From the NCBI GenBank assembly GCA_031458695.1, contig JAVKJW010000005.1, positions 20,390-84,389 on the forward strand: 64,000 bases of DNA, given 5' to 3'. The position numbers were made by a program, and so were the translations under genes. The notes under the pieces were generated by a model that saw nothing but the letters and a program-made list of their open reading frames with translations, was not told where the DNA came from and did no database searches. Positions 8,588-47,920 of the stretch are shown here, one piece after another (positions within the stretch are counted from its first letter, which is position 1; each line of letters opens with the position of its first letter). Source of the stretch: Candidatus Thermofontivivens primus (GTDB lineage Bacteria > Sysuimicrobiota > Sysuimicrobiia > Sysuimicrobiales > Thermofontiviventaceae).

Positions 8588-10118
8588 CTCTCCCTTTCGG
8601 GGTGATCCCTCCCATCATCAGCCCTATCTCTTCCCGGCTGAGCTCCTCGACCTTTCCCGAGCCGATGAACTGTCCCTCATACATCACTGCGATGCGGTCG
8701 CTGATCTCCAACACCTCGTCCAGGTCTGCAGAGACGAGGAGGACGCCCTTCCCCTCATCCCGCATCTGCACGAGGAGCTCACGGATGTACACCGTGGAGG
8801 CGATGTCCAGGCCTCTCGTGGGATGCACAGCAATCACCAGGACGGGTTCCTTGCTCAATTCCCTTCCTACCAGTAACCGCTGCTGGTTCCCTCCGCTCAG
8901 GCTGCGAACGGGGGTGTGCAGGCCTGGGGCTAACACGTTGAACCTCTCCACCAGTTGGCGGGCATAGGAAAGGATAGCATTCCAGTTGAGCCGTCCCATT
9001 CTTGTGGAGAAAGCTGGCTCACGTTGCCGGCTCAAAATGGAATTCTCGGCGAGGTCAAAGTTGAGGGCAAGGCCGAACCGGAGCCTGTCCTCTGGGATAT
9101 GAGCACCTCCTAGGCGATAGAGGTCGAGGGGGGTCAAGTGTTTGATCTCTGCTCCGTTGAGGGAGATCTCCCCGGAGCGGATGGGACGAAGTCCAGCGAG
9201 GGCCTGGACAAGCTCGCTCTGCCCGTTCCCCTCCACGCCAGCGATCCCAAAGATCTCTCCTGCGCGGACCTCAAAGGAGATCCCCTTCACCGCGAGGGCC
9301 CCCTGGTCGTTGGCAACTTGGAGGTTGCGGACGATGAGCACAGGATCTCCAGGAGGACGGCTGGACCGGCTCACGCGCGGAACAATCTCACGCCCTACCA
9401 TGAGCTCCGCAAGACGCTCGGGGGTTGCCTGGGCCGTGGGGAGCTCTCCCGTCACCTGTCCGTTGCGAAGTACCACAATCCGATCAGAGATCTCCATGAC
9501 CTCCCGGAGCTTGTGAGTGATGAACACAATGGATCTCCCAGTAGCCCTAAGACCACGCAAGAAGCGGAATAGGTCATGGACCTCTGTGGGGGTGAGCGCA
9601 GAGGTTGGTTCGTCGAGGATCAAGACCGAGGTCCCCTTGTAGAGCGTCTTCACGATTTCCACCCTCTGCTGGACCCCAATGGGGAGCGACTCCACCGGGA
9701 CATCCAAGGGGATAGAAAGGCCCGTCTCCTCAAGAAGCTCGGAGATCCGCTGGCGCGCCTTCTCAACCCGGAGGGCACCGAGGGTGGGGCTCCCTTCTTG
9801 GCCTAGGATGATGTTCTCGAGAGCTGAGAAAGGTGGGACCAGGGTGAAGACCTGGTGAACCATCCCGATGCCCACGCGCAAGGCGTCGGAGGGATTCCGG
9901 AACAGCACAGGGTGGCCATCGATGAGGATTTCCCCCCGGGTCGGTTGCAGCAGACCAGAGAGGATCTTCATCAAGGTGGTCTTCCCTGCCCCATTCTCCC
10001 CCAGGAGGCCGACGATCTCCCCGGGGTGCAGGTGGAAATCCACCCCGCGCAGAGCAACAGTCCCGTCGGGATATACCTTGTGAATGCCGCGCATCTCCAC
10101 GCGCGGTGCGGCGGCCAT
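8550..10118 (-). CDS. ABC transporter ATP-binding protein with two nucleotide-binding domains.
   Basis: 522 aa. Two Walker A motifs (GENGAGKTT, GVEGNGQSE) and two signature/Walker B sets. Typical of sugar/nucleoside-type CUT2 importers. Confidence 0.9.
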   Translation of the reverse strand: MAAAPRVEMRGIHKVYPDGTVALRGVDFHLHPGEIVGLLGENGAGKTTLMKILSGLLQPTRGEILIDGHPVLFRNPSDALRVGIGMVHQVFTLVPPFSALENIILGQEGSPTLGALRVEKARQRISELLEETGLSIPLDVPVESLPIGVQQRVEIVKTLYKGTSVLILDEPTSALTPTEVHDLFRFLRGLRATGRSIVFITHKLREVMEISDRIVVLRNGQVTGELPTAQATPERLAELMVGREIVPRVSRSSRPPGDPVLIVRNLQVANDQGALAVKGISFEVRAGEIFGIAGVEGNGQSELVQALAGLRPIRSGEISLNGAEIKHLTPLDLYRLGGAHIPEDRLRFGLALNFDLAENSILSRQREPAFSTRMGRLNWNAILSYARQLVERFNVLAPGLHTPVRSLSGGNQQRLLVGRELSKEPVLVIAVHPTRGLDIASTVYIRELLVQMRDEGKGVLLVSADLDEVLEISDRIAVMYEGQFIGSGKVEELSREEIGLMMGGITPKGRDESALASSPTSD

Positions 10119-10153
10119 AATGACCTCTCCTCGACTCCTCCCTCCAGAACATG

Positions 10154-10204
10154 GGCAGGGGCAAGCCTCTTCAGGAGCCGAATAGCCCGAAGCTTGCCCC
10201 TGCC
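10154..10204 (-). other. Perfect 13-bp-stem hairpin between the binding-protein gene and the ATPase gene of the ABC operon.
   Basis: ggcaggggcaagc ... gcttgcccctgcc with a 25-nt loop. No U-tract. Intra-operon position. Confidence 0.5.
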
Positions 10205-10238
10205 AGCGAGACGGATCTTGATTCTAGCTGGGCCAGGG

Positions 10239-11525
10239 CTAGCCCAGTTCCTTCCGCCACTTCTCGATGTCTGGCTTCGTCAGCACGAGGGGTACCGTGA
10301 CCGTGCCCTCCCGGATCTTCTTCTCCAGCTCGGCAACAGCAGCCCAGATCCACTGTGGTTGCGCCTCGCGCATCGCCTTGACCTTTGCACGGATCTCCGC
10401 TGGCGGGGCAGGGAGGACCTTCTTCCCCGTCAGCTTCTCGGCAGTCTGTCCCATCTTGATGAACTCGTCGAGATCGGCGAGCGTGGAGACTGAGATCCCC
10501 TCGGTGAGCTCACCAGCGACCTTAGTGCCGATCCCCAGGACCAGCGTCCCCTTGGTCTGCTTCACGAGGTCCCGGAACTTGCCATCCTTGACGAACTTTG
10601 TCGCATAGTAGACGCCCTTGTCCACGCGCTTCATCATGCTGGCGATGACGAAGCCCGGGTTGATCCAGTCCTGGTTGGCGTCGACGCCGATCCAGAACGG
10701 CGGGCCCATCTTCAGGCCCCTGGCCTTGGCGATTTCCTGTACCGCTTGGTTGATGCCAAGTCCCAGGGGACCGGCGATGTTGTACACCGCAACCGCATCC
10801 TTGGCGTACATCGCCTTTGCGGCTGCATAACCCTTGGGGATGTCGCTGAAGGTGCCGGTGTACGTCCAAAGGACAAAGTCCGTGCGATACTTAAAGGCTT
10901 TATCTGGCTTGTTCTTGAACATCCACTCCGTCGCCCACCGGGCCCCCCACTTGTAGCCGATCTCAAACTTCCAGAGGACGGGGATCTCAATGCCGAATAC
11001 TCCGCCAATGTAGGGTTTGTTGTAGTGGGCTGCCAGCAACGTGGCCAGGGCGCCCACGAGGGCGCTCCCCTTGTGCTCTTCGTACACGATATCCATCAGG
11101 TTGGGCAAAGGGTACTTAGCCGGGAACTTCTCCTTGATAATGGATTGGGCAAAGGTATCGATTCCCACGAAGTTCTTGTTGGGGAACCTCTGGGCGACCT
11201 GGGCGAGGGCATCGCTGAGCAGGAAGCCCACCCCCACAATGAGCTGGACATCTGGATCCCTGGCCGCAGTCGTCAGGTTGGGGACGTAATCGGCCTCCAC
11301 CTTGCTGATGAGCTCCACCATCTGGACGCCGAAATCCCTCTCCGCATCCTCACCGCCCTTGAATGCCATGTCGTTGAAGCTGAGGTCCCCCCGGCCTCCG
11401 ATGTCGGAGACAACGGCGATCTTGAAGCGTTTGGGGGCGGCCTGGACGAGTGCGTAGGGGAAGGACTGGAGCAGCAAAGCCGCGAGGATGATGAAAAGCG
11501 CCCCAAGCCACAACCGTGACTTCAT
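10239..11525 (-). CDS. BMP-family (PnrA-like) ABC substrate-binding protein, probably nucleoside-binding.
   Basis: Start placed at MKSRLWLGALFIILAALLL... (signal peptide) rather than the longer track ORF. BMP/Med-family fold. First gene of the transporter operon. Confidence 0.85.
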   Translation of the reverse strand: MKSRLWLGALFIILAALLLQSFPYALVQAAPKRFKIAVVSDIGGRGDLSFNDMAFKGGEDAERDFGVQMVELISKVEADYVPNLTTAARDPDVQLIVGVGFLLSDALAQVAQRFPNKNFVGIDTFAQSIIKEKFPAKYPLPNLMDIVYEEHKGSALVGALATLLAAHYNKPYIGGVFGIEIPVLWKFEIGYKWGARWATEWMFKNKPDKAFKYRTDFVLWTYTGTFSDIPKGYAAAKAMYAKDAVAVYNIAGPLGLGINQAVQEIAKARGLKMGPPFWIGVDANQDWINPGFVIASMMKRVDKGVYYATKFVKDGKFRDLVKQTKGTLVLGIGTKVAGELTEGISVSTLADLDEFIKMGQTAEKLTGKKVLPAPPAEIRAKVKAMREAQPQWIWAAVAELEKKIREGTVTVPLVLTKPDIEKWRKELG

Positions 11526-11789
11526 CGCCTCTCCCTCCTCTTTCGCATGTTGGCGGCCGGGGTCTTGGTTTGGAAAACCGTTCTCCCCGGAAGCCCCAGG
11601 GGACCTTGCCCGGCACACCACTTCTAAAACTACGTCACACCCTTCCCGGAAACCTGCAAAGAGATCTACGCAGCCAAAGGATTTTTACACCTCAGCGATA
11701 TGCAAAAAGGCAACCGCGCACGCGGCCACGAATTCATGATTGTAAAGCGGCTCTGTACCCAGCGAGGCGGTCGCGGAGGGGGAGAGGGG

Positions 11790-12683
11790 TTGGCCCGGAT
11801 TCTTGTCACCGGTGCAGCGAATGTGGATCTCATTGGCGCTCCTGCTGACCCGCTTATCCCAGGAGTGTCCAACCCTGGGACAATCGCGCTGGCCCCAGGT
11901 GGAGCAGCCCGGAATGTGGCCGAGCACCTCTCCCAGATGGGCCATGATGTGCACCTGATCACGGCTGTAGGGGATGATCCCTTCGGGAGGTGGGTCCTCG
12001 ACGCGACCGCGCAGGCGGGCGTAGATGTTTCCAGCGCTTTCCAGTTTCCAGGTCAGCGCACAGGGCTTTACCTTGCGATCCTCGACGATGGGGAAGTCAC
12101 TGCAGCAGTCTCAGCCACAGGGATCGTCGAGGAGCTGACCCCTGAATCCCTCCAGACGCGCGCACCGTTGTTTTCTCAGGCAGACATCGTCGTAGCAGAT
12201 GCGAACCTCCTTCCTGAAGCTCTCTGGGAGGTGCATCGCCTTTCCAGGAACGCTCTCCTATGCCTCCTTCCTGTCTCCCCCCAAAAAGCCACCCGCCTCC
12301 GCGGGATCCTGGCAGAGGCTGATCTCGTCGTGGGGAGCGCCAAGGAGGGAGAGGTCCTTGCTGGCCGCCCGTGTGGATCTCGGGCGGATCTCATCCTTCT
12401 TGGGAGGGCGATCCTCTCCCATGGCCCGAAGGTCGTCGCCCTCACGATGGGTGGAGAGGGTGCGGTGGTGATCACAGAGGATGCATACCTCTGGGCTCCT
12501 GCTCCCAACGTCAAGGTTGTGGACCCCACGGGAGCAGGGGATGCCTTCGCGGCAGGGATCATCCATGGAAGAGCCCTTAGGCTTCCCCTCCGGGAGATGC
12601 TGGAAGGTGCCATGGACAGGGCAGCCATTGCCCTCAAAGCTCGTGGGAATCTCTGGAGGCATCTTCTAGGAGATTCATCCTGA
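11790..12683 (+). CDS. pfkB-family carbohydrate/nucleoside kinase, probable pseudouridine kinase.
   Basis: Ribokinase-like N-terminus (ARILVTGAANVDLIG) and GAGD motif near the C-terminus. Immediately upstream of a pseudouridine-5'-phosphate glycosidase gene. Start is uncertain: the track ORF starts at 11700, and a TTG at 11790 preceded by GGAGG is my preferred start. Confidence 0.7.
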   Translation: MARILVTGAANVDLIGAPADPLIPGVSNPGTIALAPGGAARNVAEHLSQMGHDVHLITAVGDDPFGRWVLDATAQAGVDVSSAFQFPGQRTGLYLAILDDGEVTAAVSATGIVEELTPESLQTRAPLFSQADIVVADANLLPEALWEVHRLSRNALLCLLPVSPQKATRLRGILAEADLVVGSAKEGEVLAGRPCGSRADLILLGRAILSHGPKVVALTMGGEGAVVITEDAYLWAPAPNVKVVDPTGAGDAFAAGIIHGRALRLPLREMLEGAMDRAAIALKARGNLWRHLLGDSS

Positions 12684-15875: not shown

Positions 15876-16465
15876 ACCGCGAGCAGCCACGTCTTCATCG
15901 CGTGTTCATCGCCGTGGAGCTTGATCATCAGCTCAGGGAGAAGGTTGTTCATATCCAGCAGGCCCTCAAGGAGTCAGGCGCGCACATGCGGTGGGTCCAG
16001 CCCCAGAACCTCCATTTTACCCTCCGGTTCTTGGGGGAACTCCCTTTGGCTGAGGTGGCCAAGGCAAAGATCGCCGTGCGCGAGGCAGGCCGCAGGGCCT
16101 CTCCATTCGCGATCCATCTCAAGGGGGTAGGGGCTTTCCCTAGCCTGGAGCGCCCCCAGGTGGTCTGGATCGGTGTTGGGGAGGGGGAGGCTGAACTCGC
16201 TAGGCTTGCTGAAGCCGTCAGCCTTTCCCTGGCGCGATACCACTTTCCCAAAGAGGACCGGCCGTTTACTGCCCACCTCACCCTTGGCAGGCTGAAGACG
16301 AGCAGGAACTGGGGGGATCTCGTCCGCCTCCTGCGCTCCCTGAAGGATGTGGATGTGGGCGATCAGCGCGTGGAGGCTATGGTGGTGATGGAGAGCCGCC
16401 TCACTCCGAGCGGGCCCATCTATACCCCTCTGGAGACAGTTCTCCTGGGGGAAAATGGGGCTTGA
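15872..16465 (+). CDS. thpR: RNA 2',3'-cyclic phosphodiesterase / 2'-5' RNA ligase (LigT/ThpR, 2H family).
   Basis: Two H-x-T/S-x motifs (HFTLRFLG, HLTLGRL). GTGA start overlaps the cinA stop, preceded by GGGAGGAG. Confidence 0.8.
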   Translation: MNREQPRLHRVFIAVELDHQLREKVVHIQQALKESGAHMRWVQPQNLHFTLRFLGELPLAEVAKAKIAVREAGRRASPFAIHLKGVGAFPSLERPQVVWIGVGEGEAELARLAEAVSLSLARYHFPKEDRPFTAHLTLGRLKTSRNWGDLVRLLRSLKDVDVGDQRVEAMVVMESRLTPSGPIYTPLETVLLGENGA

Positions 16466-16490
16466 CAATCAAACATATGTTTGGTATAGT
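16462..16490 (+). promoter_or_regulatory. recA promoter (TTGACA, 17 bp, TATAGT) with an embedded palindromic LexA (Cheo-type) box CAAACATATGTTTG.
   Basis: Seen directly: cTTGACAatCAAACATATGTTTGgTATAGT about 30 bp upstream of the recA ATG. The 14-mer is a perfect palindrome of the GAAC-N4-GTTC class (AAAC/GTTT variant). Confidence 0.7.
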
Positions 16491-16516: not shown

Positions 16517-17587
16517 ATGATGAATGAGCGTCAGCGTGCTCTCGAATTAGCCCTCACCCAGATTGAGAAGCAATTTGGAAAAGGATCGATCATGAAACTT
16601 GGCGAGGCAAGCGCCAAGCTCGCAGTGGAAGTGATCTCCACGGGTGCCCTTTCCCTCGATGCTGCCCTTGGCATCGGGGGAGTCCCGCGGGGCAGGGTGG
16701 TGGAGATCTACGGCCCTGAAGCGTCGGGGAAGACCACCTTGGGGTACCACATCATTGCTGAGGCCCAACGGGAAGGGGGAATTGCTGCTTTCATTGACGC
16801 GGAGCACGCGCTTGACCCCAACTATGCCCGGGCGATTGGCGTGGATGTCGACAACCTCTATATCTCCCAGCCCGACTCCGGGGAACAGGCCCTGGAGATC
16901 GCGGAGATGCTTGTGCGAAGCGGGGCTGTGGACGTGATTGTCATCGACTCAGTGGCCGCCCTCGTCCCCCGGGCTGAGCTCGATGGGGAGATGGGGGATG
17001 CTCACGTGGGGCTTCAGGCAAGACTCATGTCCCAGGCGCTCCGCAAACTCGTCGGCGCCATCAGCAAGTCCCGCACCACTGTCGTGTTCATCAACCAGGT
17101 GCGCGAGAAGATCGGGGTAATGTTTGGGAACCCCGAGACCACGACGGGAGGGCGCGCACTAAAATTCTACTCCTCTGTCCGCATGGAGATCCGAAGAACC
17201 GAGAGCCTGAAGTCTGGGGAGGATACAGTGGGCATGCGCGCCCGGGTGAAGGTCGTCAAGAACAAGCTGGCCCCGCCCTTCAAGGAAGGGGAGGTGGAGA
17301 TTCTCTACGGGAAGGGCATTTCCAAGGCAGGGAATATCCTCGACATGGCTGTCTCCACTGGGATCATCACCCGTAGCGGCACGTGGTACACCTATGGGGA
17401 CATCCGGTTGGGCCAAGGGAGGGAGAATGCCCGGGATTTCCTGGAGAGCAACCCTGAGCTTGCCCACGAGATCGAGGACAAAGTGCGGGAGAAACTGGGG
17501 CTTCCTAGGTTGAAGACGGTAGGGGAGGTTAAAGCATCCGACCCGGAGCAGGTACGCAAAGAGCCTCAGGCAAAAGTGAAGGCGTAA
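16517..17587 (+). CDS. recA: Recombinase RecA.
   Basis: 356 aa. Walker A GPESSGKTT, L1/L2 loops. Unmistakable RecA. Confidence 0.97.
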
Positions 17588-17670: not shown

Positions 17671-18312
17671 ATGGTCACCGTTCGACGAATTCGTTCTCTT
17701 CCAGGCGCTGTGGAGAGGGCTATCGTGGAGGTGGAGGGAAAGGGGAGATTTTTGGTCTCAAGAGGGCTTGCGGCGGAGTTAGAAGTAGGGATGGCCCTCG
17801 ATGATCGGCTCCTTAGGAGGCTCGCGAGCGAGGACCTTTTGCACCGTGCGCTGCAAGTTGCTCTCCGGCTTTTACGCATCCGCCTGTACAGCAGGGCAGA
17901 AATGACCCTCCACCTTAAAAGGCGCGGATTCCCTCCCCAGATCGTGACGAATGTGATCCGCATGTTAGAGCAGCAGGGAGTTCTCAACGACCTCCAGTTT
18001 GCCAAGACTTGGATCACTGGGGTCATGGCGAGACGACCAGCGTGGCAGAAGAGGCTAGAAGCGGAGCTACGGGCAAAGGGGGTGGTGAAGGAGGTGATCG
18101 CACAAGCGCTCGATGAGGCCCTCTCCGGGACTACAGAAGTTGAGGTTGCGCGGGAAGTTGCCCTCCGTCGCCTCCGGGCGTATCATCGCTTTCCCCCGGA
18201 GGTGCAACAAAGGCGTTTGATCTCCTTCCTCCAGCGCAGGGGGTTCACTCCCGAGACAGCTACATCTGTGGTGAGGGAGCTTGTGCGGGAGGAAGGATCT
18301 CGTGAATCCTGA
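17671..18312 (+). CDS. recX: RecA regulator RecX.
   Basis: 213 aa, three-helix-repeat RecX family, directly downstream of recA. Confidence 0.85.
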   Translation: MVTVRRIRSLPGAVERAIVEVEGKGRFLVSRGLAAELEVGMALDDRLLRRLASEDLLHRALQVALRLLRIRLYSRAEMTLHLKRRGFPPQIVTNVIRMLEQQGVLNDLQFAKTWITGVMARRPAWQKRLEAELRAKGVVKEVIAQALDEALSGTTEVEVAREVALRRLRAYHRFPPEVQQRRLISFLQRRGFTPETATSVVRELVREEGSRES

Positions 18313-18321
18313 GGGCACGTC

Positions 18322-21300
18322 ATGGGGAAACGAAGACACCGCAACCTGGCTTCGAGGACGAGGAAAGGCGAAGAAAGTGAGGACCAACTCCCCTTGGGCC
18401 TCGAACCTCCCTCTGTAGAACTCCTCCATGCGGGGCTGCCGCATGAATCGAGAGTGGCGGAGGAGCCTGCTGAATTCCTGAAGGAGTTGGGGGAGCTCTC
18501 GGTCAGCAGGATCCTTGCTGACCTCAACGAAGAGCAAAGGCGCGCAGTCACCCACGGGGAAGGGCCTCTCCTGATTGTTGCAGGCGCAGGCACCGGAAAG
18601 ACCACGGTGATCACCCGCCGCATTGCCTATCTTATCGCGACGAAGCGGGCGAGACCACGGGAGATCCTGGCGCTCACCTTCACCGACAAGGCCGCCGCGG
18701 AGATGGAGGAGAGGGTAGACCTCCTCGTTCCCTATGGGTATGCGGACGTGTGGATTAGTACATTCCACGCGTTCGGAGACCGGATCCTTCGGGAGAATGC
18801 CCTGGAGATCGGCCTTAACCCAGACTTCCGCATCCTCTCCAAGGCGGAGCAGATCATCTTTTTCCGCGAGCACCTTTTCGACTTTCCATTGGACTACTAC
18901 CGCCCGCTCGGTGACCCTACCAAATATGTAGAGGCAATGATCACCCTATTCAGCCGGGCAAAAGATGAGGATGTGAGCCCGGAGGAGTACCTGACGTATG
19001 CAGAAAAACTCCTTGCAGAGGCGGATCCAACTGACCCTGAAGCAGTGCAAGAGGCTCGCAGGCAACTCGAGATTGCCCGTACGTACCAGCGCTACCAGGA
19101 ACTCCTGGCGAAGGAAGGCCTCGTGGACTTTGGAGATCTCATCACCCTCACGCTCAAGCTCTTCCGGGAGCGACCGCATGTCCTGCGGCGCTATCAAGAG
19201 CAGTTCAAGTATATTCTCGTCGATGAGTTCCAGGACACGAACTACGCCCAGTTCCAGCTCACCAAGCTCCTGGCCAGCCGACATGAGAACATCACCGTGG
19301 TGGGCGATGACGACCAGAGCATCTACAAGTTTAGGGGGGCTGCGATTAGCAACATCTTGAACTTTATGGATACCTATCCGCACGCCACCCAGATAGTCCT
19401 TACCAGGAACTATCGTTCTTCTCAGCTCATCCTCGATGCCGCCTATCGCTTGATCCGGTACAACGACCCCGATCGTCTGGAGGTCAAAAACCAGCTGGAC
19501 AAGCGCCTGTTCGCCGTCCATATGGAGGGACAGCCTGTTCGACACCTCCACTTTGATTCACTCTCCAGTGAAGCGGACGCGGTTGCAAGCATCATTGCGG
19601 AGAAGGTGGAGAAAGGTGCATACCGGTATAAGGATTTTGCCATCCTTGTTCGCTCCAACAACGACGCCGACCCTTTCCTGCGTTCCTTAAATATGAGGGG
19701 GATTCCCTTTCACTTCAGCGGGGGGCAGGGGCTCTACCAGCGGGAGGAGATCCGCCTGGTCATGGCTTTTCTCCGATCTCTCACTAACCCGTATGACAAC
19801 CTAAGCCTCTACCATCTGGGAAGTTCCCCCCTCTACCAGATTGACCCCGGGGACCTCGCCCGTTGCCTTGCCGTGGCGAATCGCAAAAACCGCTCCCTGG
19901 AGCACATCTTCGACCAGCTCCACGCGTACGAGGAGTTGGAGGAGGTCTCCCCAGAGAGCCGTGCTGCCATCGCCAAGCTCGTGGAGGACCTCAAAGAGAT
20001 GCGTTCCTTTGCTCAGCACCACGTGACCGGCCGGGTTCTCTACGAGTACCTCGTGAACCGGACAGGATATATCCGGCGCCTCGTTGCTTCAGGCAATGTG
20101 GAGGACGAGATCAAAGTCGCCAACCTGGCGAAGTTTTTCGACATTGTGGCCAAAGTAGCCCAGCTCCTGCGCTACGACAACGTGCACGCGTTCGTAGAGT
20201 ACATGGATAAGCTCATCGAAGCAGGGGATGATCCCACAGCTGCGGAGCTCTCCGGTCCCGACCTCGATGCAGTCCACGTCATGACCGTGCACAAGGCCAA
20301 AGGCCTGGAGTTTCCCGTGGTCTTCCTGGTGAGCTGTGTCTCCGATCGCTTCCCGACCCGGAACCGCAACGAGGGGTTGAGCCTGCCTGATCCTCTGATC
20401 AAGGACATCCTCCCCAGCGGCGATTTCCACCTCCAGGAGGAGCGGCGCCTGTTTTACGTGGGGATGACACGGGCCCAGAAAGAACTCTACTTGACAAGCG
20501 CGCGGGACTATGGGGGGGTTCGGCCACGGAAGGTAAGCCAGTTCGTCCTTGAAGCGATGGATATGCCCAAGGTGGATCCTGAGGTAGCAAAGGCCTCGGC
20601 GGTGGAAGCCATCGAACGGCATGCGCCGCCTGTGGTGGAGTCCTTGATGGGCCAGCCACTTCCTGAGGACAGTCCCCTCATCCTCAGCTTCCGGCAGATC
20701 GACGACTACGATACGTGCCCGCTCAAGTACAAATATATCCATATCCTTCGCGTCCCAGTGATGCGGGATCACCGGGTGGTTTACGGCGCAGCCCTCCACG
20801 AGGCCGTGCGAGAGTATAACCGGAGGAAAGCTCGGAACCAGCCGATGAGCCTGGAAGAGCTCATTTCGTACTTCGAGCGGGTCTGGACAAACGAAGGGTT
20901 CGTCAGCCGGGAACACGAGGATTACCGGTTTGAGGAAGGCCGCCAGGTCCTGCGACAGTTCTTCCTATTCGAAGAAGGTAGTGGGGTTACTCCCACCCTC
21001 GTGGAGATGCCCTTCAGCTTCCAGCTTGGGAAGACGCGTGTAAAGGGGAGGTGGGATCGGGTAGACGTCCACGGGGACGAGGTCGTCATTGTGGACTTCA
21101 AGACGAGCGATGTCCGCGACACGAAGGAGGCCAATAGGAGGACCAGGGAGAGCCTCCAGTTGGCCATTTACGCACTCGCCTACAAGGAGGTCTATGGACG
21201 CCTCCCCTCTTGGGTAGAGCTCCGTTTTTTGGGGAGTCAGCAGGTACTGGTGGGGCGTGCAGAGCCGCATGAGGAGTATATCCGCGAAGCGATAGAGGTG

Positions 21301-21420
21301 ATCGAGAAGGTAGCTAAGGGGATTCGGGCACAGCGCTTTGTGGCCACGCCAGACTTCTACCGGGCGTGCAGGTTTTGTGCTTTCAACCAGATTTGTCCTT
21401 ACACCGCAGCAGGGGAGTGA
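18322..21420 (+). CDS. UvrD/PcrA-type superfamily-1 helicase fused to a C-terminal Cas4/AddB-like PD-(D/E)XK nuclease with a 4-Cys Fe-S cluster.
   Basis: 1032 aa. N-terminal helicase motifs (AGAGTGKTTV, DEFQDTNYAQ, VGDDDQSIYKFRGA, QNYRS, TVHKAKGLEF). C-terminal nuclease (C-x...RWDRVD...IVDFKT...QLAIYALAY...CRFCAFNQIC). Starts 9 nt after the recX stop. Confidence 0.85.
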   Translation: MGKRRHRNLASRTRKGEESEDQLPLGLEPPSVELLHAGLPHESRVAEEPAEFLKELGELSVSRILADLNEEQRRAVTHGEGPLLIVAGAGTGKTTVITRRIAYLIATKRARPREILALTFTDKAAAEMEERVDLLVPYGYADVWISTFHAFGDRILRENALEIGLNPDFRILSKAEQIIFFREHLFDFPLDYYRPLGDPTKYVEAMITLFSRAKDEDVSPEEYLTYAEKLLAEADPTDPEAVQEARRQLEIARTYQRYQELLAKEGLVDFGDLITLTLKLFRERPHVLRRYQEQFKYILVDEFQDTNYAQFQLTKLLASRHENITVVGDDDQSIYKFRGAAISNILNFMDTYPHATQIVLTRNYRSSQLILDAAYRLIRYNDPDRLEVKNQLDKRLFAVHMEGQPVRHLHFDSLSSEADAVASIIAEKVEKGAYRYKDFAILVRSNNDADPFLRSLNMRGIPFHFSGGQGLYQREEIRLVMAFLRSLTNPYDNLSLYHLGSSPLYQIDPGDLARCLAVANRKNRSLEHIFDQLHAYEELEEVSPESRAAIAKLVEDLKEMRSFAQHHVTGRVLYEYLVNRTGYIRRLVASGNVEDEIKVANLAKFFDIVAKVAQLLRYDNVHAFVEYMDKLIEAGDDPTAAELSGPDLDAVHVMTVHKAKGLEFPVVFLVSCVSDRFPTRNRNEGLSLPDPLIKDILPSGDFHLQEERRLFYVGMTRAQKELYLTSARDYGGVRPRKVSQFVLEAMDMPKVDPEVAKASAVEAIERHAPPVVESLMGQPLPEDSPLILSFRQIDDYDTCPLKYKYIHILRVPVMRDHRVVYGAALHEAVREYNRRKARNQPMSLEELISYFERVWTNEGFVSREHEDYRFEEGRQVLRQFFLFEEGSGVTPTLVEMPFSFQLGKTRVKGRWDRVDVHGDEVVIVDFKTSDVRDTKEANRRTRESLQLAIYALAYKEVYGRLPSWVELRFLGSQQVLVGRAEPHEEYIREAIEVIEKVAKGIRAQRFVATPDFYRACRFCAFNQICPYTAAGE

Positions 21421-21872
21421 GCATATATCCCATTTCGTATAGAGAAAACGCCATTCCTACTCTGCGTGGGTATGCTTTCCGCTTCGCGAAGGAGGGGGTG
21501 CAATCGGGTGGGGTCATCGTTAGCCCGTGGAGGGAGGAGTTGATCCGAGCGATTCAAGAGAGGCGGATCCTCCATCTCACCTATCAAAAGAAAGGGGGAT
21601 CTGTGGAGAAGTACGTTATCGCTCCATGGGATTTGGTCCCAGGAGGTGAGACAGGTGAGGAGCTCCTTGTGGCCTTTGCCTATAACCGGAACGATTTCCG
21701 CTCGTTCCGCTTGAGCAGGATCCTGAGCATCCGGGAGCTAGGAGAGGAATTCGACCCACGGGAGTTCTATCCGAGGCTCGCTACGTGGCCTCCTCGTTGG
21801 CATGTCCTGCGCGCGTGGCCCCTTCAGGAAGGCGAATATCCCGCGGGGAAGGGAGGCCTGGGAAGGGGATGA
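21417..21872 (+). CDS. Stand-alone WYL-domain protein (no HTH).
   Basis: About 151 aa. ILHLTYQKKGGSVEKYVIAPWDLV...LLVAFAYNRNDFRSFRLSRILSIRELGEEFDP matches the WYL domain signature. GTGA overlap with the helicase-nuclease stop and ATGA overlap with the next gene. Confidence 0.7.
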   Translation: MSIYPISYRENAIPTLRGYAFRFAKEGVQSGGVIVSPWREELIRAIQERRILHLTYQKKGGSVEKYVIAPWDLVPGGETGEELLVAFAYNRNDFRSFRLSRILSIRELGEEFDPREFYPRLATWPPRWHVLRAWPLQEGEYPAGKGGLGRG

Positions 21873-22981
21873 TCAAGTTGCTCCACCTCTCAGATGTCCA
21901 TCTGGGGGCGCGGTTCCAGATGCTGGGTGAGCGAGGACGAGAACATCGTCGCCAGCTGCAGGAGACCTTCGCTAGGGCCATTGGGATAGCGTGCGAGGAG
22001 CCCGTGGACCTTGTCCTCATCGCTGGCGACCTGTTCGATTCCCCCCACCAGTCAGAATCCACCATCTCCTTTGTGCGCGAACAGTTTCGCCGCCTGGAGG
22101 CGAGGGGAATCCCGTTGTGTCTGATTGCCGGGAACCATGACCCTTTCGAAGAGGGGGGCGTCTACGCGGTCGGACGATTCGAGCAGTGCAGCAACGTCAC
22201 CCTGTTTGGGACCACCCCGGGAAGCAAGGTATTCTCCCAGCTCGACCTCACTGTGTTCGGGAGCTCCCCATCCCCTGGCTCTGGCCGCAGCCCGCTCGCA
22301 GGCTGGAAGGTAGAACGGCAAACGCGCTTTGCTGTGGGCTTGGTCCATGGGAGCATCTACCGTTCAGGGCAAGTGGAAGGCCCAGCGACAATCCACCCCG
22401 AGGAAATCCGGGGTCTCGGGCTCGACTATCTTGCGCTTGGCGACTGGCACTCTTGCCAGCGGGTCCTGGGGCCGCCCACCACTGCTTGGTACTCAGGTTC
22501 CCCTGAGTTCTTAAGCCTCGACCAGGAGGGGGCGGGCCATGTTCTTTTGGTGACACTGGAGGAGCCTGGCTCTGTGCACGTCCGGCCTGTTCGTGTGGGT
22601 CGAAGGTCCTACAAAAAAATTGAACTCGAGATCTCCGCCCTCCCTGTGGAGGAGATCAAGGCCCGGATCCTCCAGGAGGCAGATCCTGATCTCATCATGG
22701 ACGTGATCCTCAAGGGGTTCATCCAGCCCGGGATCTCTATTTCAGCAGCGGAACTGGAAGAGGATCTGGGTGGGCATTTCTTCCGCTTGCGTGTGCGCAA
22801 CGAGAGTTCCCTTCGGCTGGAGGACTTGGACGAGCAGGACTTCCCCGAAGGAACCGTTCTGGGGAGGTTCGTTCGCTTAATGCGAAAGAGAATGGAGGAA
22901 CTAGACCCTGCAGAGCGTCCCCTCCTTGAGGAGGCACTCCAGCTTGGGGTGGGACTTTTGCAGGGGAGGGAGGTCCTCTAG
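21869..22981 (+). CDS. SbcD/Mre11-family metallophosphoesterase nuclease (YhaO-like).
   Basis: MIKLLHLSDVHLG...DLVLIAGDLFD...GNHD calcineurin-like motifs. Translationally coupled on both sides. Confidence 0.85.
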   Translation: MIKLLHLSDVHLGARFQMLGERGREHRRQLQETFARAIGIACEEPVDLVLIAGDLFDSPHQSESTISFVREQFRRLEARGIPLCLIAGNHDPFEEGGVYAVGRFEQCSNVTLFGTTPGSKVFSQLDLTVFGSSPSPGSGRSPLAGWKVERQTRFAVGLVHGSIYRSGQVEGPATIHPEEIRGLGLDYLALGDWHSCQRVLGPPTTAWYSGSPEFLSLDQEGAGHVLLVTLEEPGSVHVRPVRVGRRSYKKIELEISALPVEEIKARILQEADPDLIMDVILKGFIQPGISISAAELEEDLGGHFFRLRVRNESSLRLEDLDEQDFPEGTVLGRFVRLMRKRMEELDPAERPLLEEALQLGVGLLQGREVL

Positions 22982-25146
22982 TGCGCCTTCGTCGCCTTCG
23001 AGTACGACGCTTTCGTCGCCTGCGGGGCTTGGAGATCACCTTCCATCCAGGTCTCAACGTCATCGTCGGCCCGAACGAGGCAGGCAAGTCCACTCTCCGC
23101 GAGGCGATCATCATGGCTCTGTATGGGAACGCCGCGACGACCTCCCAGGCAATCCGGGAAAGCACCCGCTCCTGGGGCTCGGATCGTCCTGCGGTCCTTG
23201 AGCTGGAATTTGAGGCGGACGGGGAGGTCTACACCCTGGGCAAGGATTTCCACGGACGCAAGGTCTTCTTGCGCGACAGCAAGGGGAACAACTGGGAGGG
23301 ACACGCGCGGATCCAGAGGGAGATCGGGACTCTTCTTGGGTTTCCCAACGAAAATCTCTATCGGTCCACTGCGCATGTGGCCCAGGCAGAGCTTGACCGG
23401 CTATCCACTGACACCCCGGATATCGCCAAGGAGCTTTCCAGGATCATCACCGGTGGAGGACAGGATGCGAACGTGGTAACGGTCCTTCACCGGCTTGAGC
23501 AAGCGATCGAAGCCCAACGGAAGGGGCTCCAGCGGTACGCCAAAGATCCGGGGCCTATTAAGCGACTGGAGAACATTGTGACTTCCCTCGAGGGGCGGCG
23601 GGCGGAACTTCTCCAGAAGGCCCAACAGGCCATCCAGAGCCGCAAGGAGATTATCGAGGTGAGCAAAGAGCTTGAACGGGCTGCAACCACACTGACCATC
23701 AAAGACAACCTTCTCAAGGTGAACCAAGAGCTCATGCGCGTTGAGAACCGCCTGCAGGAACTCAAAACACAGGAATCTCAGTTGGGAGACCGGATAAGGA
23801 AAATTCACCAAAACATCCTCAAACTTTCACAGATCAAAGAGGAGATTGCTGCGCTCATTGGGGAGGGAGAGGTTCCAGACGAGGAGACGATGCACAAGCT
23901 CCGGGAAACCTACGCTTTTTATTCCGGCGCAGCATCGCGTGCCGAACGCCTAGCCGAAGAAGTAAGGGCAATGGAGGGAAGCCTCGCTCAGTTCCCGCGA
24001 TTCGCCGGGCGGGCCGTTTCCGCTCTTCTCACCCTCGCGACAGTGAGCCTCATCGCTAGCATGGTCCTCTCCGCGTGGAGGGGGATCGTGTGGGGGGGTC
24101 TTACGGCCCTGCCAGGGGTCCTCTTTCTCCTTTTCGCTTACAATTTCTGGAAAATGGAGGAGGCGCGACGCATCGAGGAAGATCGGCTGGAAGCCCGGCG
24201 AAAAGAGCTGGAGGTCGCGCGCAGGGATGCTGGCAAGTTCGAGGAGGAAATGCGCCAATTGCTCAAGGAACTGAGGTGCAATAGCCTGGAGGAGGCCACT
24301 CGCCGGTATGAGCATTACCAACGCCTTGTCGGGGAGCAAAGAGCCCTTGCGCAGTCCCTCCAAGACCTCCAGGGGGATCAGACGGTAGAGACCTTGCAAG
24401 AACAGTATCAGGATATCCAGCGGGAGATCTTCGTGCGAACGGAATACTTGAAGAACCCAGAGGTAGCGGCGAAGCGCCTTCTCCCCCTCGAAGTGCAACA
24501 CCTAGAGGAAGAGGTGGAACGTCTCAGAACCCAGGTGCGTCAGCTCGAGCAGAGGAAGCAACGGCTTGAGTGGGAGATTGAGCATTACTCCCCCGCCCTC
24601 GAGGAGCTCAAGGAGGTTGAGGAGCAGCTCGACGAGAGCAAGGAGCGCCTCCAGCTGGAGAGGAATCGCCTGCGCGTCTACGAAATGGCCTATGAAGTGC
24701 TACGGGAAGCGCACCAGCAGGTTATGGTCCCTGCCCGGGAGGTGGTCAGCTCCCTGGCAGGGGAATACCTCAAGGTCCTCACGGGAGGACGCTACCATCG
24801 CGTGCGCATGGCCGAGGATTCCCTCCAGGTGGAGGTCTGGGTGGACGAGGCGCAACGGTGGATCGCCCCCAAAGAGCCAGAATTTAGTCGTGGGGCCATC
24901 GATCAAGTCTACCTTGCGACCCGCCTCGCGCTCGTCGAAGTCCTTGCCCAGGGGAAATCCCCGCCCCTTGTGCTGGACGACCCCTTCGTCCACTTCGACG
25001 AGGAGCGGCTCCAGGCTGCCATAGACCTGATCAGGCGGCTTTCCTCCCGTTACCAAGTGCTGCTGTTCACGTGTAGGCGAGAGTACAGCAAGTATGCCGA
25101 CCACCTCATTCACATTGACACCCTCTCGGGGATAGGGATACAATAG
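22981..25146 (+). CDS. SbcC/SMC-like ATPase with long coiled coil and two internal transmembrane helices (YhaN/SbcE-like).
   Basis: 721 aa. N-terminal Walker A (GPNEAGKST), C-terminal signature/Walker B (LVLDDPFVHFD), heptad-rich middle. Hydrophobic pair ...AVSALLTLATVSLIASMVLSAW...LTALPGVLFLLFAYNFW... in the middle of the coiled coil. GTG start overlaps the sbcD-like stop. Confidence 0.8.
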   Translation: MRLRRLRVRRFRRLRGLEITFHPGLNVIVGPNEAGKSTLREAIIMALYGNAATTSQAIRESTRSWGSDRPAVLELEFEADGEVYTLGKDFHGRKVFLRDSKGNNWEGHARIQREIGTLLGFPNENLYRSTAHVAQAELDRLSTDTPDIAKELSRIITGGGQDANVVTVLHRLEQAIEAQRKGLQRYAKDPGPIKRLENIVTSLEGRRAELLQKAQQAIQSRKEIIEVSKELERAATTLTIKDNLLKVNQELMRVENRLQELKTQESQLGDRIRKIHQNILKLSQIKEEIAALIGEGEVPDEETMHKLRETYAFYSGAASRAERLAEEVRAMEGSLAQFPRFAGRAVSALLTLATVSLIASMVLSAWRGIVWGGLTALPGVLFLLFAYNFWKMEEARRIEEDRLEARRKELEVARRDAGKFEEEMRQLLKELRCNSLEEATRRYEHYQRLVGEQRALAQSLQDLQGDQTVETLQEQYQDIQREIFVRTEYLKNPEVAAKRLLPLEVQHLEEEVERLRTQVRQLEQRKQRLEWEIEHYSPALEELKEVEEQLDESKERLQLERNRLRVYEMAYEVLREAHQQVMVPAREVVSSLAGEYLKVLTGGRYHRVRMAEDSLQVEVWVDEAQRWIAPKEPEFSRGAIDQVYLATRLALVEVLAQGKSPPLVLDDPFVHFDEERLQAAIDLIRRLSSRYQVLLFTCRREYSKYADHLIHIDTLSGIGIQ

Positions 25147-28687: not shown

Positions 28688-28900
28688 ATGCGTTGCCCGA
28701 AGTGTGGCACGGAGAACCCTCCTGGGAAGATCGTGTGCCGGAAGTGCGGCGTTCGCCTGAGGCCGCAGGCAACGTCCCAGGAAAGTGTGATCGGGGAGGA
28801 AGTAGTGGTGAGGTGGGTCCGTAGGGACCTTGGCCAGCTGGTTGTTGTTCTGGTCATCCTCATCACCTGTGGAGCTCTCCTGGGCTTTCTCTTCCGGTAA
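28688..28900 (+). CDS. Zinc-ribbon microprotein with C-terminal TM helix.
   Basis: 70 aa. CPKCG...CRKCG zinc ribbon, then LVVVLVILITCGALLGFLF. RBS-like AGGGAGG upstream. Ends exactly where selA begins. Confidence 0.5.
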   Translation: MRCPKCGTENPPGKIVCRKCGVRLRPQATSQESVIGEEVVVRWVRRDLGQLVVVLVILITCGALLGFLFR

Positions 28901-30345
28901 TGGGGGCAATGGCCAGGGGAGGGCCCATGGACCCGAAGGCCTCGCTCCGTCAGCTCCCCCAGGTTGAGCGTGTCCTCGCCCATCTGGACGCCGAGGGGTA
29001 TCTTCTCCGCTATCCCCGCGCGCTGGTTGTGGCTTGTGTCCGAGAGGTGCTAGAAAAGAAGCGCCAGATCCTCATGAGGGAAGATCTCCCCACCGTAGAT
29101 GTCTCCATAGAGGCCATCCTCCGCGAGGCCCGTGCTCTGATCGCACGAAAAAGCCTACCCTCTCTGCGAAGGGTGATCAATGCCACTGGAGTCATCCTCC
29201 ACACCAATCTTGGTCGTGCACCCCTGAGCGAGGCCGCAAGGAGGGCGGTTGCAGAAATGTCCAGCTATTCCACCCTAGAAGTCGGCCTGGAGGGGCGGGG
29301 AAGAGGCTCTCGGCATGCCCACATCGAGTCCCTTCTTGTCCAGGTGACTGGGGCAGAGGCAGGGTTTGCTGTGAACAACAACGCCGCAGCTGTCCTTCTT
29401 GTCCTGACGGCCCTTGCCCAGGGGAAGGAGGTCGTTGTGTCCCGGGGAGAGCTCGTGGAGATCGGAGGGACCTTCCGGATGCCCGATGTCATGGCGGCAA
29501 GCGGGGCCAAGCTCGTGGAGGTGGGAACGACAAACAAGACCTACGTGTGGGATTATGAGCGTGCCATTACCTCCCAAACGGCCCTTCTCCTGAAGGTTCA
29601 CCGAAGCAACTTCACTCTCCGGGGATTTGTGCATGAGACCGCCCTCCCAGAGCTCGTCCAACTCGGGAGGCGCGCGGGTATCCCAGTGATGTACGATCTC
29701 GGTAGCGGTGCCCTCCTGGACCTTGGCCGCCGTGGTCTACCCCAGGAACCAACTGTTGGGGAGGCGGTAAAAGCAGGGGTGGATGTGGTGACCTTCAGCG
29801 GGGACAAGCTCTTGGGAGGTCCCCAGGCAGGCTTGATCGTTGGCCGGAAAGAAGTCCTCAGGCGGATCCAATCCCATCCCCTTGCCCGAGCCTTGCGCAT
29901 CGACAAGCTCAACCTTGCTGCTCTCGTAGCAACCCTTCGCCACTACCTTGATCCCGAACGTGCGTGGCAAGAAGTACCCGTCCTACGCATGCTGTCGGCT
30001 CCCCAGGAGGAACTGGAAAGGCGGGCTCGCCAGCTTTGTGGAAGATTAGAGGAGATCCTCAGGGGAACTGCAGAGACGACTGTGGTAGAGACGGCCGCTG
30101 AGGCCGGCGGGGGCTCCCTCCCTGAAGCCCATCTTCCCTCCTATGCGGTGGCCATCCGTCCCCTTACCGAACCCGTGGAAAAATGGGATCAAAGGTTGCG
30201 CTCCCTTCCCCTCCCCCTCATCGGGGTGATTCGGGAGGATGCCCTCCTCCTTGATGTTCGTACACTTCTCCCCGGTGAGGAGGAGGAAGTGGTCGAGGTA
30301 TTTCGAACCCTCCTTACCCCGGATACACGAGAAATCATCACGTGA
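28900..30345 (+). CDS. selA: L-seryl-tRNA(Sec) selenium transferase.
   Basis: PLP-dependent SelA family (...[18 protein letters not shown]...). Start may be the downstream ATG ([10 protein letters not shown]...) at about 28927. Confidence 0.85.
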
Positions 30346-30352
30346 AACGGCT

Positions 30353-32299
30353 ATGCGGCAGTTCGTCATTGGTACGGCAGGCCACATCGACCACGGCAAG
30401 AGTGCCCTCGTGAAAGCTCTTACCGGCATGGACCCCGATCGGCTAGAAGAAGAAAAGCGACGGGGGATGACCATTGATCTTGGGTTTGCTTATCTTGACC
30501 TCCCAAGCGGGCGAAGGGTTGGGATCGTGGATGTCCCTGGACACGAGAGACTCATCCGGACGATGCTTGCCGGTGCGACTGGGATCGATCTTGTCCTTTT
30601 GGTCGTGGCAAGCGACGAGGGAGTGATGCCCCAAACGCGGGAACACTTGGACATCCTGCGTTTCCTGCACCCGAGCTGTGGCGTCGTGGTGCTCACTAAG
30701 ATCGACCTCGTTGAAGATCATGCTTGGCTCGCCCTCGTCCAAGAAGAAGTTGCTCAGCTGGTGGAGGGGACCTTCCTGCAAGGAATGCCGGTTATCCCTG
30801 TCTCCGCCAAGACCGGGGAAGGCCTCGACGTGCTCATACGAACCATCGATAAGCTTCTCGACGAGATCCCTCTACACCCCCAGGAGGGCCCTGTCCGTCT
30901 CCCTGTAGACAGGAGTTTCGTCATGCCTGGATTTGGGACTGTGGTCACAGGGACGCTCTGGAGCGGGCGGATCCGGCCGGGAGACGTTCTGGAACTGCTT
31001 CCGTCAGGGAAAGAGGTGCGTGTTCGAGGCATCCAGAGTTATGGGCAGTGGGTGGAGGAGGGAATCGCCGGGACCCGTGTTGCCCTGAACCTCGCGGGAA
31101 TCTCCAGGGAGGAGGTCCAACGAGGGGACGTCCTTGTCACCCCTCAAGCCTTTACCCCTGCGACGCTCCTCGACGTGCGCGTCGAGCTTCTTCCTCAAGC
31201 ACCGCCCGTTGCCCATATGACCCGCCTGCGCTTCTACCTGGGGACAGCAGAGGCGTTTGGTCGGCTTGCCCTTCTGGACCGGGAGGTCCTTGGTCCCGGG
31301 GAGAGCGCTGTTGGCCAGGTCCGGCTGGAAACCCCTGTTGTGGCAGCACGCGGGGATCCATTTGTCCTTCGACGCTACTCCCCCCTCCAGACCATCGGTG
31401 GGGGAAAGGTAATCTCCTCCGCTCTCGCGAAGCGCAGGCGAGGGGATTCCTGCGCTCTGGCAGAAATCCTCGCCCTGGAACGAATGGGTGAAGATGAGCT
31501 TGCCGAGAGGTTCACCTGGGAAGCAGGGTATAGGGGGATCACAATGGAAGAACTCTCCCAGCGCCTAGGACTCGCCCTGCCCACGGTCTACGAACTCATC
31601 CAGAAAATGTCCAGCGCGGGGTCAGCGATCCTCCTTGGGAGCAGGATCTTCCATTCGAAGGTTTTGGAAGACCTCAAGGAGGCGATCCTCTCGGCGCTCG
31701 CCAGCTACCACAGCGAGGCTGCATGGCGAGTGGGGATGCCCCGGGAAGAACTCAAGAAAAGGGTGTTTCGGGGTGGGGATGACCGCCTCTTTTCCCATGC
31801 GTTGGAGGACCTCCAACGGGAAGATCCCCTGGGAGGGCTCTCTGGGGAACCCTCCCAGGGAAAGGTGGCACTTAAAGGTTCGTTGGTCCGCCTCGAGGGT
31901 CATCGCCCGGTGAGAACAGAAGTGGAGGAGAGGTGCCTCCAGCACCTTCTCCGCATCTACGCCGAAGGTCGCTTCACGCCTCCTTCCAAGGAGGAGGCCT
32001 TTGCGCTCCTCCCAGAAGATCGGGCCGTCCTAGAACGCATGTACCAAGCTGCCTTGGACGAGGGCCTCCTTGTCGAAGTCAGACCTGGCATGGCATTCTC
32101 CCACCAAGCCCTGGAGGAGATGAAGATCATCGTCCTCCGGCATATCCAGGAGCATGGAGGGATCACCGTAGGAAACCTCCGTGATCTCCTTGCAACCAGC
32201 CGGAGGTATGCCCTCGCCGTTCTGGAACATTTCGATGCCTTAGGCCTCACGAGGCGCGTAGGAGATCGGCGGATTGCTGCCCACCGTTGGTTGGAGTAA
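30353..32299 (+). CDS. selB: Selenocysteine-specific elongation factor SelB.
   Basis: [25 protein letters not shown]... GTPase domain, beta barrels and C-terminal winged-helix domains. Start is 8 nt after the selA stop. Confidence 0.9.
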
Positions 32300-34609: not shown

Positions 34610-34704
34610 GGAGGGGGATGGGGCCTGGTGGTCCTCCTGGTCTTCAAAACCAGTGACGAGCCTGGATGGCCCGTGGTGGGTTCGATTCCCACACCCCTCC
34701 GCCA
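34610..34704 (+). tRNA. selC: tRNA-Sec (selC), anticodon UCA.
   Basis: Hand-folded. 8-bp acceptor GGAGGGGG / (A)CCCCTCC (terminal G.A mismatch). Anticodon stem CTGGT/ACCAG with loop CTTCAAA. Long variable arm TGACGAGCCTGGATGGCCCGTGG. T-arm GTGGG-TTCGATT-CCCAC. Discriminator G plus encoded CCA. Classic bacterial 8/5 tRNA-Sec architecture. Confidence 0.85.
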
Positions 34705-38516: not shown

Positions 38517-38741
38517 GGATCCCACCGACCTCTTTTGGTAAGATTTCGCTGGGCTGCGTAGCGTTGCTCCCTTCTGGGAAGATTTCCGCACTTGCGCTTG
38601 CACATCTCTCTACTGGCCAAGCGGAGGATTTCGGAAGGAAACCACGAATTCTCATCCCAAGGCACCCACGGGAGAGGGCCTGAGCTCATTGCAGGAAGGG
38701 AGGCGGGAGGTCCGAGATCGTTGACGGAACGCGTCACTCCT

Positions 38742-47904: not shown

Positions 47905-47920
47905 GCAAACATTTGTTCGC
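47905..47920. promoter_or_regulatory. Cheo-like LexA box in the lexA / DUF72 divergent promoter region.
   Basis: gcAAACATTTGTTCgc, same class as the recA box. A second palindrome, TGTTTAttatgTAAACA, lies about 20 bp away at about 47940-47957. Confidence 0.55.

Follow-up and report, generated by a model that had tools for sequence, protein, structure and literature searches.

A stand-alone WYL-only protein between a helicase-nuclease and SbcD: a rare, optional member of a probable SOS operon in Candidatus Thermofontivivens primus

WYL domains are established sensors of single-stranded DNA (ssDNA), and nearly all studied examples signal through transcription. In the regulator PafB, mutation of R211/R214 abolishes both ssDNA binding and activation (PMC11804915). 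The WYL domain of the helicase TePif1 is required for high-affinity ssDNA binding and couples the ATPase to unwinding (bioRxiv 10.1101/163188), and it serves as an auxiliary ssDNA-binding part by which the motor is tuned (10.1101/163188; PMC9964779); in DdPif1, the residues R491, R495, R498, and R501 are predicted ssDNA contacts (PMC9964779). WYL1 of Cas13d modulates the nuclease post-translationally and not via transcription (PMC5935466), and it binds single-stranded RNA (PMC11804915); the YolD-like proteins of SOS operons have been proposed to be accessory subunits, counterparts of UmuD (PMC6511836; PMC4012209). As for stand-alone WYL-only proteins, we found no characterisation of any in the literature. 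We describe here such a protein, encoded in a stretch of 64,000 nucleotides (nt) from Candidatus Thermofontivivens primus (assembly GCA_031458695.1, contig JAVKJW010000005.1, positions 20,390 to 84,389 of the forward strand), hereafter called the window, whose own numbering is used throughout. Being a free-standing WYL domain that lies between two DNA-end-processing enzymes in what is very probably an SOS operon, it offers a test case for direct action in trans on repair enzymes.

The reading frame of interest is open on the + strand from 21366 to the TGA at 21870-21872, and the following features can be distinguished in it:

21417-21872, + strand: WYL-only open reading frame (ORF) as delimited in a sequence-only reading of the window; 151 amino acids (aa), with a GTG start on the helicase TGA and a TGA stop on the sbcD ATG.
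21417-21494, + strand: doubtful first 26 codons of this ORF, probably untranslated spacer DNA, or else a disordered extension specific to the lineage.
21495-21872, + strand: conserved coding core of the WYL gene, 125 aa from a GTG with AAGGAGG just 5' of it.
21534-21734, + strand: WYL domain (Pfam PF13280), residues 40-106, a helix followed by a five-stranded Sm/SH3-like barrel.
21687-21719, + strand: arginine ladder R91, R95, R98, R101 (RNDFRSFRLSR), a predicted ssDNA-binding groove, by alignment.
21750-21821, + strand: C-terminal tail motif FDPR...WP..W...R.WP, which replaces the WCX domain and marks a small WYL-only family.

The 151-aa product matches the Pfam WYL profile PF13280 over residues 40-106 (E=2e-11; 44.1 bits for a gathering cutoff of 21.8), and the PADLOC WYL models match it as well (6e-14 and 1e-11); NCBIfam offers no model for it. 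Nothing beyond PF13280 was returned by the Pfam search at E<=0.1, neither a helix-turn-helix (HTH) family nor the WCX dimerisation domain (PF25583). The AlphaFold2 (AF2) model, made from a 24-sequence family alignment, has a core at residues 39-123 with a per-residue confidence (pLDDT) of about 90, consisting of a helix (39-47), five strands, and a second helix; residues 1-32 (pLDDT 30-36), which are not conserved, and 143-151 are disordered. Searched against the PDB with Foldseek, the top matches are WYL domains only (PafBC, BrxR, CapW, DriD; probability 1.00); for BrxR and CapW, the root-mean-square deviation is 1.7-2.5 A across 74-87 columns. By its profile match, its fold, and the groove described below, the protein belongs to the WYL domain family, and the proposal that it is a WYL core devoid of HTH is borne out; having no HTH, it cannot work like PafBC, DriD, BrxR, or CapW.

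About 45 residues follow the barrel and carry the tail motif. F112, P114, R132, and W134 are invariant in one alignment of the family (A1); in a larger one (A3), P114 is still invariant and F112 nearly so. The confidence of AF2 over this tail is intermediate, about 55-78.

The arginine ladder is what links this barrel to the described ssDNA-binding WYL domains. R98 and R101 align with R211 and R214 of PafB, and the whole ladder R91/R95/R98/R101 aligns with R491/R495/R498/R501 of DdPif1, whose helicase-fused WYL domain (8bnv) is the best sequence match among solved structures. R101 is nearly invariant across the WYL-only family. Binding of ssDNA by the window protein is, thus, plausible on the strength of these alignments.

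Defining where the gene starts was not straightforward. The 151-aa product was picked by gene callers in three near-identical contigs, and its GTG at 21417 overlaps the upstream helicase TGA as GTGA. We doubt this start because codons 1-26 behave like non-coding DNA and the relatives start 49-51 nt past the helicase stop. In comparison with the near-identical strain L005, codons 1-26 (21417-21494) are 97.4% identical, while identity is 99.4-100% in coding genes and 96.2% in a true intergenic region; both differences in these codons are non-synonymous (Y4H and R9G). The same segment cannot be aligned to L001 and L013, two relatives where indels break the frame: these differ from each other by a 1-nt indel in the helicase-WYL junction, and their WYL gene starts with an ATG 49 nt past the helicase stop. 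In L008, which carries the most distant ortholog, the gap between helicase and WYL genes is 51 nt. The GTG at 21495, preceded by AAGGAGG, is kept in all four lineages, and the N-terminus of the resulting 125-aa version fits the norm of the WYL-only family in the alignments. Shine-Dalgarno spacing does not discriminate between the starts at 21417 and 21495, and a G-rich stretch also abuts the well-supported ATG of sbcD. Within the doubtful codons, at 21456-21470, there is a weak hairpin, CCTACTCTGCGTGGG, with a T-rich tail and a terminator score at chance level.

The sequence-only reading had described a protein of 151 aa translationally coupled on both sides, and only one half of this description survives. 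The GTGA overlap with the helicase gene is probably not a biologically meaningful start, which leaves the length of 151 aa and the upstream coupling doubtful. On the downstream side, the ATGA stop/start overlap with sbcD at 21869-21872 recurs in L005, L001, and L013, and translational coupling of the WYL gene to sbcD stands; L008 has not kept the overlap and shows a 111-nt gap before sbcD. The frame itself holds a real gene under purifying selection. Its core is 80.6% identical to L001/L013 at the nucleotide level, similar to the neighbouring genes, and the ratio of non-synonymous to synonymous substitution rates (dN/dS), calculated with the 81%-identical relative, is 0.11, to be set beside 0.15 for recX, 0.09 for sbcD, and 0.055 for the helicase gene in the same comparison. 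Together with the Pfam match and the confident fold, this value confirms a genuine ORF and not a spurious overlap.

The gene order around it reads cinA, thpR (LigT), recA, recX, a 1032-aa helicase-nuclease, WYL, sbcD, sbcC, a gap, rny, and ymdB. The features of the putative transcription unit and of its control are the following:

16462-16490, + strand: recA promoter, TTGACA-17-TATAGT with a TG extension, near-consensus.
16470-16483, + strand: candidate LexA (SOS) operator CAAACATATGTTTG, a perfect palindrome in the recA promoter spacer.
16517-17587, + strand: recA, first gene of the transcription unit, by profile search.
17671-18312, + strand: recX, second gene of the unit, by profile search.
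18322-21420, + strand: helicase-nuclease, a UvrD/PcrA-like helicase of superfamily 1A (SF1A) fused to a C-terminal Cas4/AddB-type PD-(D/E)XK nuclease.
21869-22981, + strand: sbcD/Mre11-like nuclease (Metallophos), N-terminus MIKLLHLSDVHLG, whose ATG overlaps the WYL stop.
22981-25146, + strand: sbcC/Rad50-like ATPase (SMC-like), by profile search.
47234-47845, - strand: lexA, with the box CAAACATTTGTTCG at 47906-47919, 61 nt upstream of the lexA start.

The neighbours named from the sequence alone, namely a helicase-nuclease upstream and SbcD-like and SbcC/Rad50-like proteins downstream, were all recovered by profile search. The nearest solved relatives of the helicase-nuclease are PcrA, UvrD, and AdnB, and its four-cysteine signature (CPLKY ... 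C-x2-C-x5-C) is of the Cas4/AddB type (Cas4-like iron-sulfur). No AddB/AdnA-like partner gene adjoins it, which raises the possibility of a one-subunit or homodimeric enzyme analogous to AddAB/AdnAB. The placement of the helicase-nuclease gene in the recA operon, directly before sbcDC, is conserved across the phylum.

A candidate operator of the form C[GA]AAC-N4-GTT[TC]G is common to the recA promoter spacer and to the region upstream of lexA. We compared the box across the loci L001, L013, and L015-L041: in 23 of 23 related loci, the roughly 100 nt that precede recA contain a C[GA]AAC-N4-GTTTG box, which looks like the SOS box of a little-studied Sysuimicrobiota-like phylum. The palindrome CAAACATATGTTTG was not picked up by the inverted-repeat search. 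The Firmicutes-type box GAAC-N4-GTTC was tried as an operator and rejected, its one match being inside the helicase gene and at chance level. From the recA promoter to sbcC, the promoter/terminator scan found no comparably strong promoter and no convincing terminator; a second near-consensus promoter lies at 25115-25144, before rny, and the three weaker promoter-like and several terminator-like matches between these two promoters are at chance level. Taken together, recA, recX, the helicase-nuclease gene, the WYL gene, and sbcDC very probably form an SOS operon under LexA, and with such control in place, the WYL protein would not be needed as its regulator.

Other genes of the window deserve a brief mention. 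Three selenocysteine genes are found, selA (28900-30345), selB (30239-32299), and a tRNA-Sec gene (34610-34700; 76.9 bits), and the selA-selB pair also lies 3' of the operon in L001 and L002. Further downstream are the genome-maintenance genes mutS (38592-41507) and mutL (41504-43123), and a gene for an HflX-type GTPase (45408-47222) adjoins lexA.

To place the protein among its relatives, we defined a WYL-only family as proteins of roughly 100-150 aa that have a WYL barrel and the tail residues F112, P114, R132, and W134; the window protein has all of these features. Searching with the latter, phmmer finds the family members P0003, P0005, P0006, P0008, P0011, P0020, and P0023, and a profile search gathers about 23 clusters of 101-148 aa with the barrel and the C-terminal motif FDPR..WP..W..PR.W. 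The longer phmmer matches P0004, P0009, P0010, and others carry WCX; a check of these longer matches for "Rosetta stone" fusions of helicase and WYL found none, as each was either a WYL repeat protein or a regulator of the ordinary HTH-WYL-WCX kind. Phage proteomes contain many WYL-only proteins of 70-135 aa with a similar structure, and an architecture of WYL alone is, as such, not rare.

The genomic surroundings of several family members are worth describing. The genes of P0008 (L011, 1568-3439) and P0035 (L046, 5822-7771) each immediately precede, in the same orientation, a PvuII-type endonuclease gene, and on both contigs, a convergent N4/N6 methyltransferase gene lies beside the endonuclease gene. 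In restriction-modification (R-M) systems, the slot before the endonuclease is usually occupied by a control (C) protein; no HTH control protein was recognised near the P0008 and P0035 loci. P0036 (L045, 6001-9014) and P0040 (L047, 6001-8871) share a block in which a short, convergent N6_Mtase-like gene comes after the WYL-only gene, and after it come two genes without annotation, whose products have about 300 and about 370-420 aa; the region around the block looks mobile or defence-like, with PIN and PemK toxins, an SLFN-like helicase, a uracil-DNA glycosylase (UDG), and a terminase-like gene. The block may be an uncharacterised R-M-like system.

What, then, could the protein of the window do? 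The role that we favour, tentatively and by analogy, is that of an optional accessory that binds ssDNA in trans and assists the end-processing enzymes encoded next to it, co-induced with them by DNA damage. A stand-alone WYL protein of about 125 aa, made of an Sm-like barrel that bears a basic groove and of a short tail rich in Trp, without HTH or WCX, would be co-transcribed from the LexA-controlled recA promoter with RecA, RecX, the helicase-nuclease, and SbcCD, its translation being coupled to that of SbcD. By holding or sensing the single strand made by the helicase-nuclease or SbcCD, the protein would tune unwinding or cutting, much as the C-terminal WYL domain of Pif1 does in cis. The domain, its fold, the lack of HTH and WCX, the purifying selection, the place in the operon, the SOS box, and the patchy distribution are observed, while binding of ssDNA, contact with a partner protein, and an influence on the enzymes' activity are inferred. 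The order of an SF1 helicase followed by WYL mirrors the Pif1 fusion, and we also count in favour of an accessory role that distant family members are again found directly upstream of a nuclease gene (PvuII-type). The WYL profile and fold, the match to DdPif1 with its four arginines, the two PafB arginines, the constant slot in three lineages, the recurring overlap with sbcD, the low dN/dS, the lack of a comparably strong internal promoter, and the conserved LexA box also speak for it.

Several observations weigh against this accessory role. The upstream overlap with the helicase gene is not conserved in relatives; the L008 ortholog has H and A in place of R98 and R101; other family members are found in R-M or mobile-element contexts, and one in a metabolic neighbourhood. 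Furthermore, the subfamily found in the operon is extremely rare and amounts to three clusters among 5.8 billion proteins. A search of 5.8 billion proteins returned only the 99% twin and the 81% relative of the window protein; one further relative, P0003 (47% identity), came from an exhaustive phmmer search of 1.84 billion representatives; it is a singleton, and a search seeded with it returned only P0003. No relative was found in the scan of 185,579 reference genomes with the WYL alignment, nor any relative of the operon subfamily in a scan of viral contigs; a metagenome scan added one locus, L013. All members of this subfamily sit in the order helicase-nuclease, WYL, sbcD, in three lineages and down to 47% identity.

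We located the orthologous operons themselves by scanning 185,579 species-representative genomes with the C-terminus of the nuclease. The scan yielded 27 orthologous loci with 60-71% identity, from metagenome-assembled genomes labelled Armatimonadota, CSP1-3, Candidatus Sysuimicrobiota, and similar, and the operon is conserved in them. The WYL gene is absent from every one of the 20 loci that retain both flanking genes, where sbcD starts 8-27 nt past the helicase stop (124 nt in one), which counts against the accessory role too; the family hidden Markov model found no WYL ORF in any of the 31 reference-genome loci. Five relatives (L035-L039, about 9700-11800 in each) are devoid of sbcD and sbcC and have about 1.2 kb of other sequence before rny. 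In a neighbour-joining tree of the helicase C-terminus and SbcD N-terminus, which rests on 300 aligned columns, the WYL carriers never form a clade (0 of 60 bootstraps), again at odds with the role proposed above. The WYL proteins (47-49% identity) have diverged about as much as the flanking SbcD N-terminus (47% identity). We read this pattern as that of an accessory gene that is old but dispensable and has been lost several times over; its lateral return to the very slot it had left is possible.

Since 20 operons have both flanking enzymes without the WYL gene, these enzymes work without the WYL protein. The idea of a stoichiometric subunit of the complex, put forward from the sequence alone, is not supported: the gene is missing from 31 of 31 loci, 20 of which have both enzymes, the upstream coupling is not conserved, and L008 has lost R98 and R101. 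Such comparisons speak strongly against an obligatory role, because most orthologous operons are without the gene and the ortholog of L008 lost both arginines; judging from the loci surveyed, the WYL gene is a rare, optional add-on and not a core subunit of the helicase-nuclease or of SbcCD. The impact of any function it may have is limited, the operon subfamily being very rare, the host uncultured, and most relatives devoid of the gene; on the other hand, biochemistry should be straightforward with proteins of this small size, whose lineage is probably thermophilic.

The main rival to an accessory role is that the WYL protein restrains or licenses the nuclease encoded just downstream, via contact or coupled translation, with ssDNA or oligonucleotides as the switch. 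We hold it to be rather unlikely. The sole conserved overlap is indeed with sbcD, the two independent distant members upstream of a PvuII-type endonuclease gene occupy a C-protein-like slot, and two others (P0036 and P0040) abut N6 methyltransferase genes in mobile/defence-like islands; yet L008 has its 111-nt gap before sbcD, SbcCD of relatives needs no such factor, and the members associated with R-M systems, at no more than about 30% identity, may act differently. Extended to the family as a whole, the proposal would be that its HTH-less members make up a class, so far unrecognised, of ssDNA-sensing "nuclease governors" that bind the adjacent nuclease (SbcCD or the helicase-nuclease here, restriction endonucleases elsewhere) and switch its activity post-translationally on ssDNA or short oligonucleotides. 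In this general form, we find it quite doubtful; if true, it would move the sensing logic of WYL from transcription to direct enzyme control.

That the gene is a hitch-hiker, derived from a mobile element and inserted in a permissive slot, where its product would soak up ssDNA or oligonucleotide signals or would have no repair role, strikes us as unlikely. The many WYL-only proteins of 70-135 aa in phage proteomes are compatible with this origin, and so are the prophage-like, R-M, and toxin-antitoxin neighbourhoods of family members and the patchy, non-monophyletic distribution in the operon. One has to set against it, however, that the slot is identical in lineages whose WYL proteins have diverged to 47% identity, about as much as the SbcD N-terminus, which looks like long co-inheritance and not like repeated chance insertion; that purifying selection on the gene is strong; that the viral-contig scan found no relatives of the subfamily; and that there are no mobile-element genes or repeats close by in the operon.

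A non-canonical transcription factor or co-regulator, binding DNA without HTH or pairing with an HTH-bearing WYL regulator encoded elsewhere, is very improbable. Transcription factors make up more than 90% of the known WYL proteins (PMC6789036), and the pipelines of the Joint Genome Institute (JGI) label family members "YafY regulator"; the protein has, however, neither HTH nor WCX, the proteins with HTH and WCX among its matches are only distant relatives, and the operon has a candidate LexA operator of its own. No other member of the WYL-only family is encoded in the 64-kb window, in which canonical HTH-WYL regulators were not specifically searched for.

An artefact would mean either that the overlapping ORF is spurious or that it encodes a C-terminal extension which the helicase-nuclease acquires by frameshifting. 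In its favour, the last 100 nt or so of the helicase gene are also open in the WYL frame, both in the window and in L013. The chance of an artefact is nonetheless negligible in view of the Pfam match, the confident fold, the dN/dS of 0.11, the in-frame TGA that separates the two genes in L001, their distance of 51 nt in L008, and junction indels that are not multiples of three, these stops and indels in relatives ruling out a frameshift fusion to the helicase.

Coming back to the accessory role that we prefer, the protein can be compared with five groups of described WYL proteins. The HTH-WYL-WCX regulators (PafBC, DriD, CapW, BrxR; the YafY family) have the same ligand arginines and the same link to DNA damage, and they give the top structural matches. 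The window protein has neither their N-terminal HTH nor their C-terminal WCX, as found in the profile search, and is not one of them; with both missing, it has no means of reading a promoter or of assembling into the WYL-WCX tunnel dimer described for PafBC (PMC11804915).

Phage WYL-only proteins have the same architecture, with little beyond the WYL barrel in 70-135 aa, but they have no detectable sequence relationship to the operon subfamily and are not found in repair operons. Cas13d-associated WYL1, encoded in a CRISPR locus, is much larger and has a ribbon-helix-helix domain in addition. The YolD-like proteins come closer: they are also small, stand-alone, HTH-less members of a WYL-like superfamily, encoded in an SOS operon beside a DNA-repair enzyme. 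An identity with them was rejected, the YolD profile giving no match to the window protein and the partner enzymes being different, namely a helicase-nuclease and SbcCD, and not a Y-family polymerase. Nonetheless, by analogy, the genomic logic of the window WYL gene resembles that of the YolD-type SOS accessory proteins.

The C-terminal WYL domains of Pif1 helicases (TePif1, DdPif1, SsPif1) share with the window protein the arginine ladder, the order of SF1 helicase then WYL, and the lack of HTH. Differences are nonetheless clear: the window WYL domain is a separate polypeptide, read in another frame; the motor is an SF1A helicase-nuclease of the UvrD/PcrA type and not an SF1B Pif1; and there is an extra Trp-rich tail. 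Membership of the helicase-fused class was, thus, rejected, on the grounds of a separate ORF in a different frame and of an in-frame stop or a spacer of 49-51 nt in relatives. Considering the way in which it might act, and not its place in the genome, the window protein would work most like the WYL module of Pif1.

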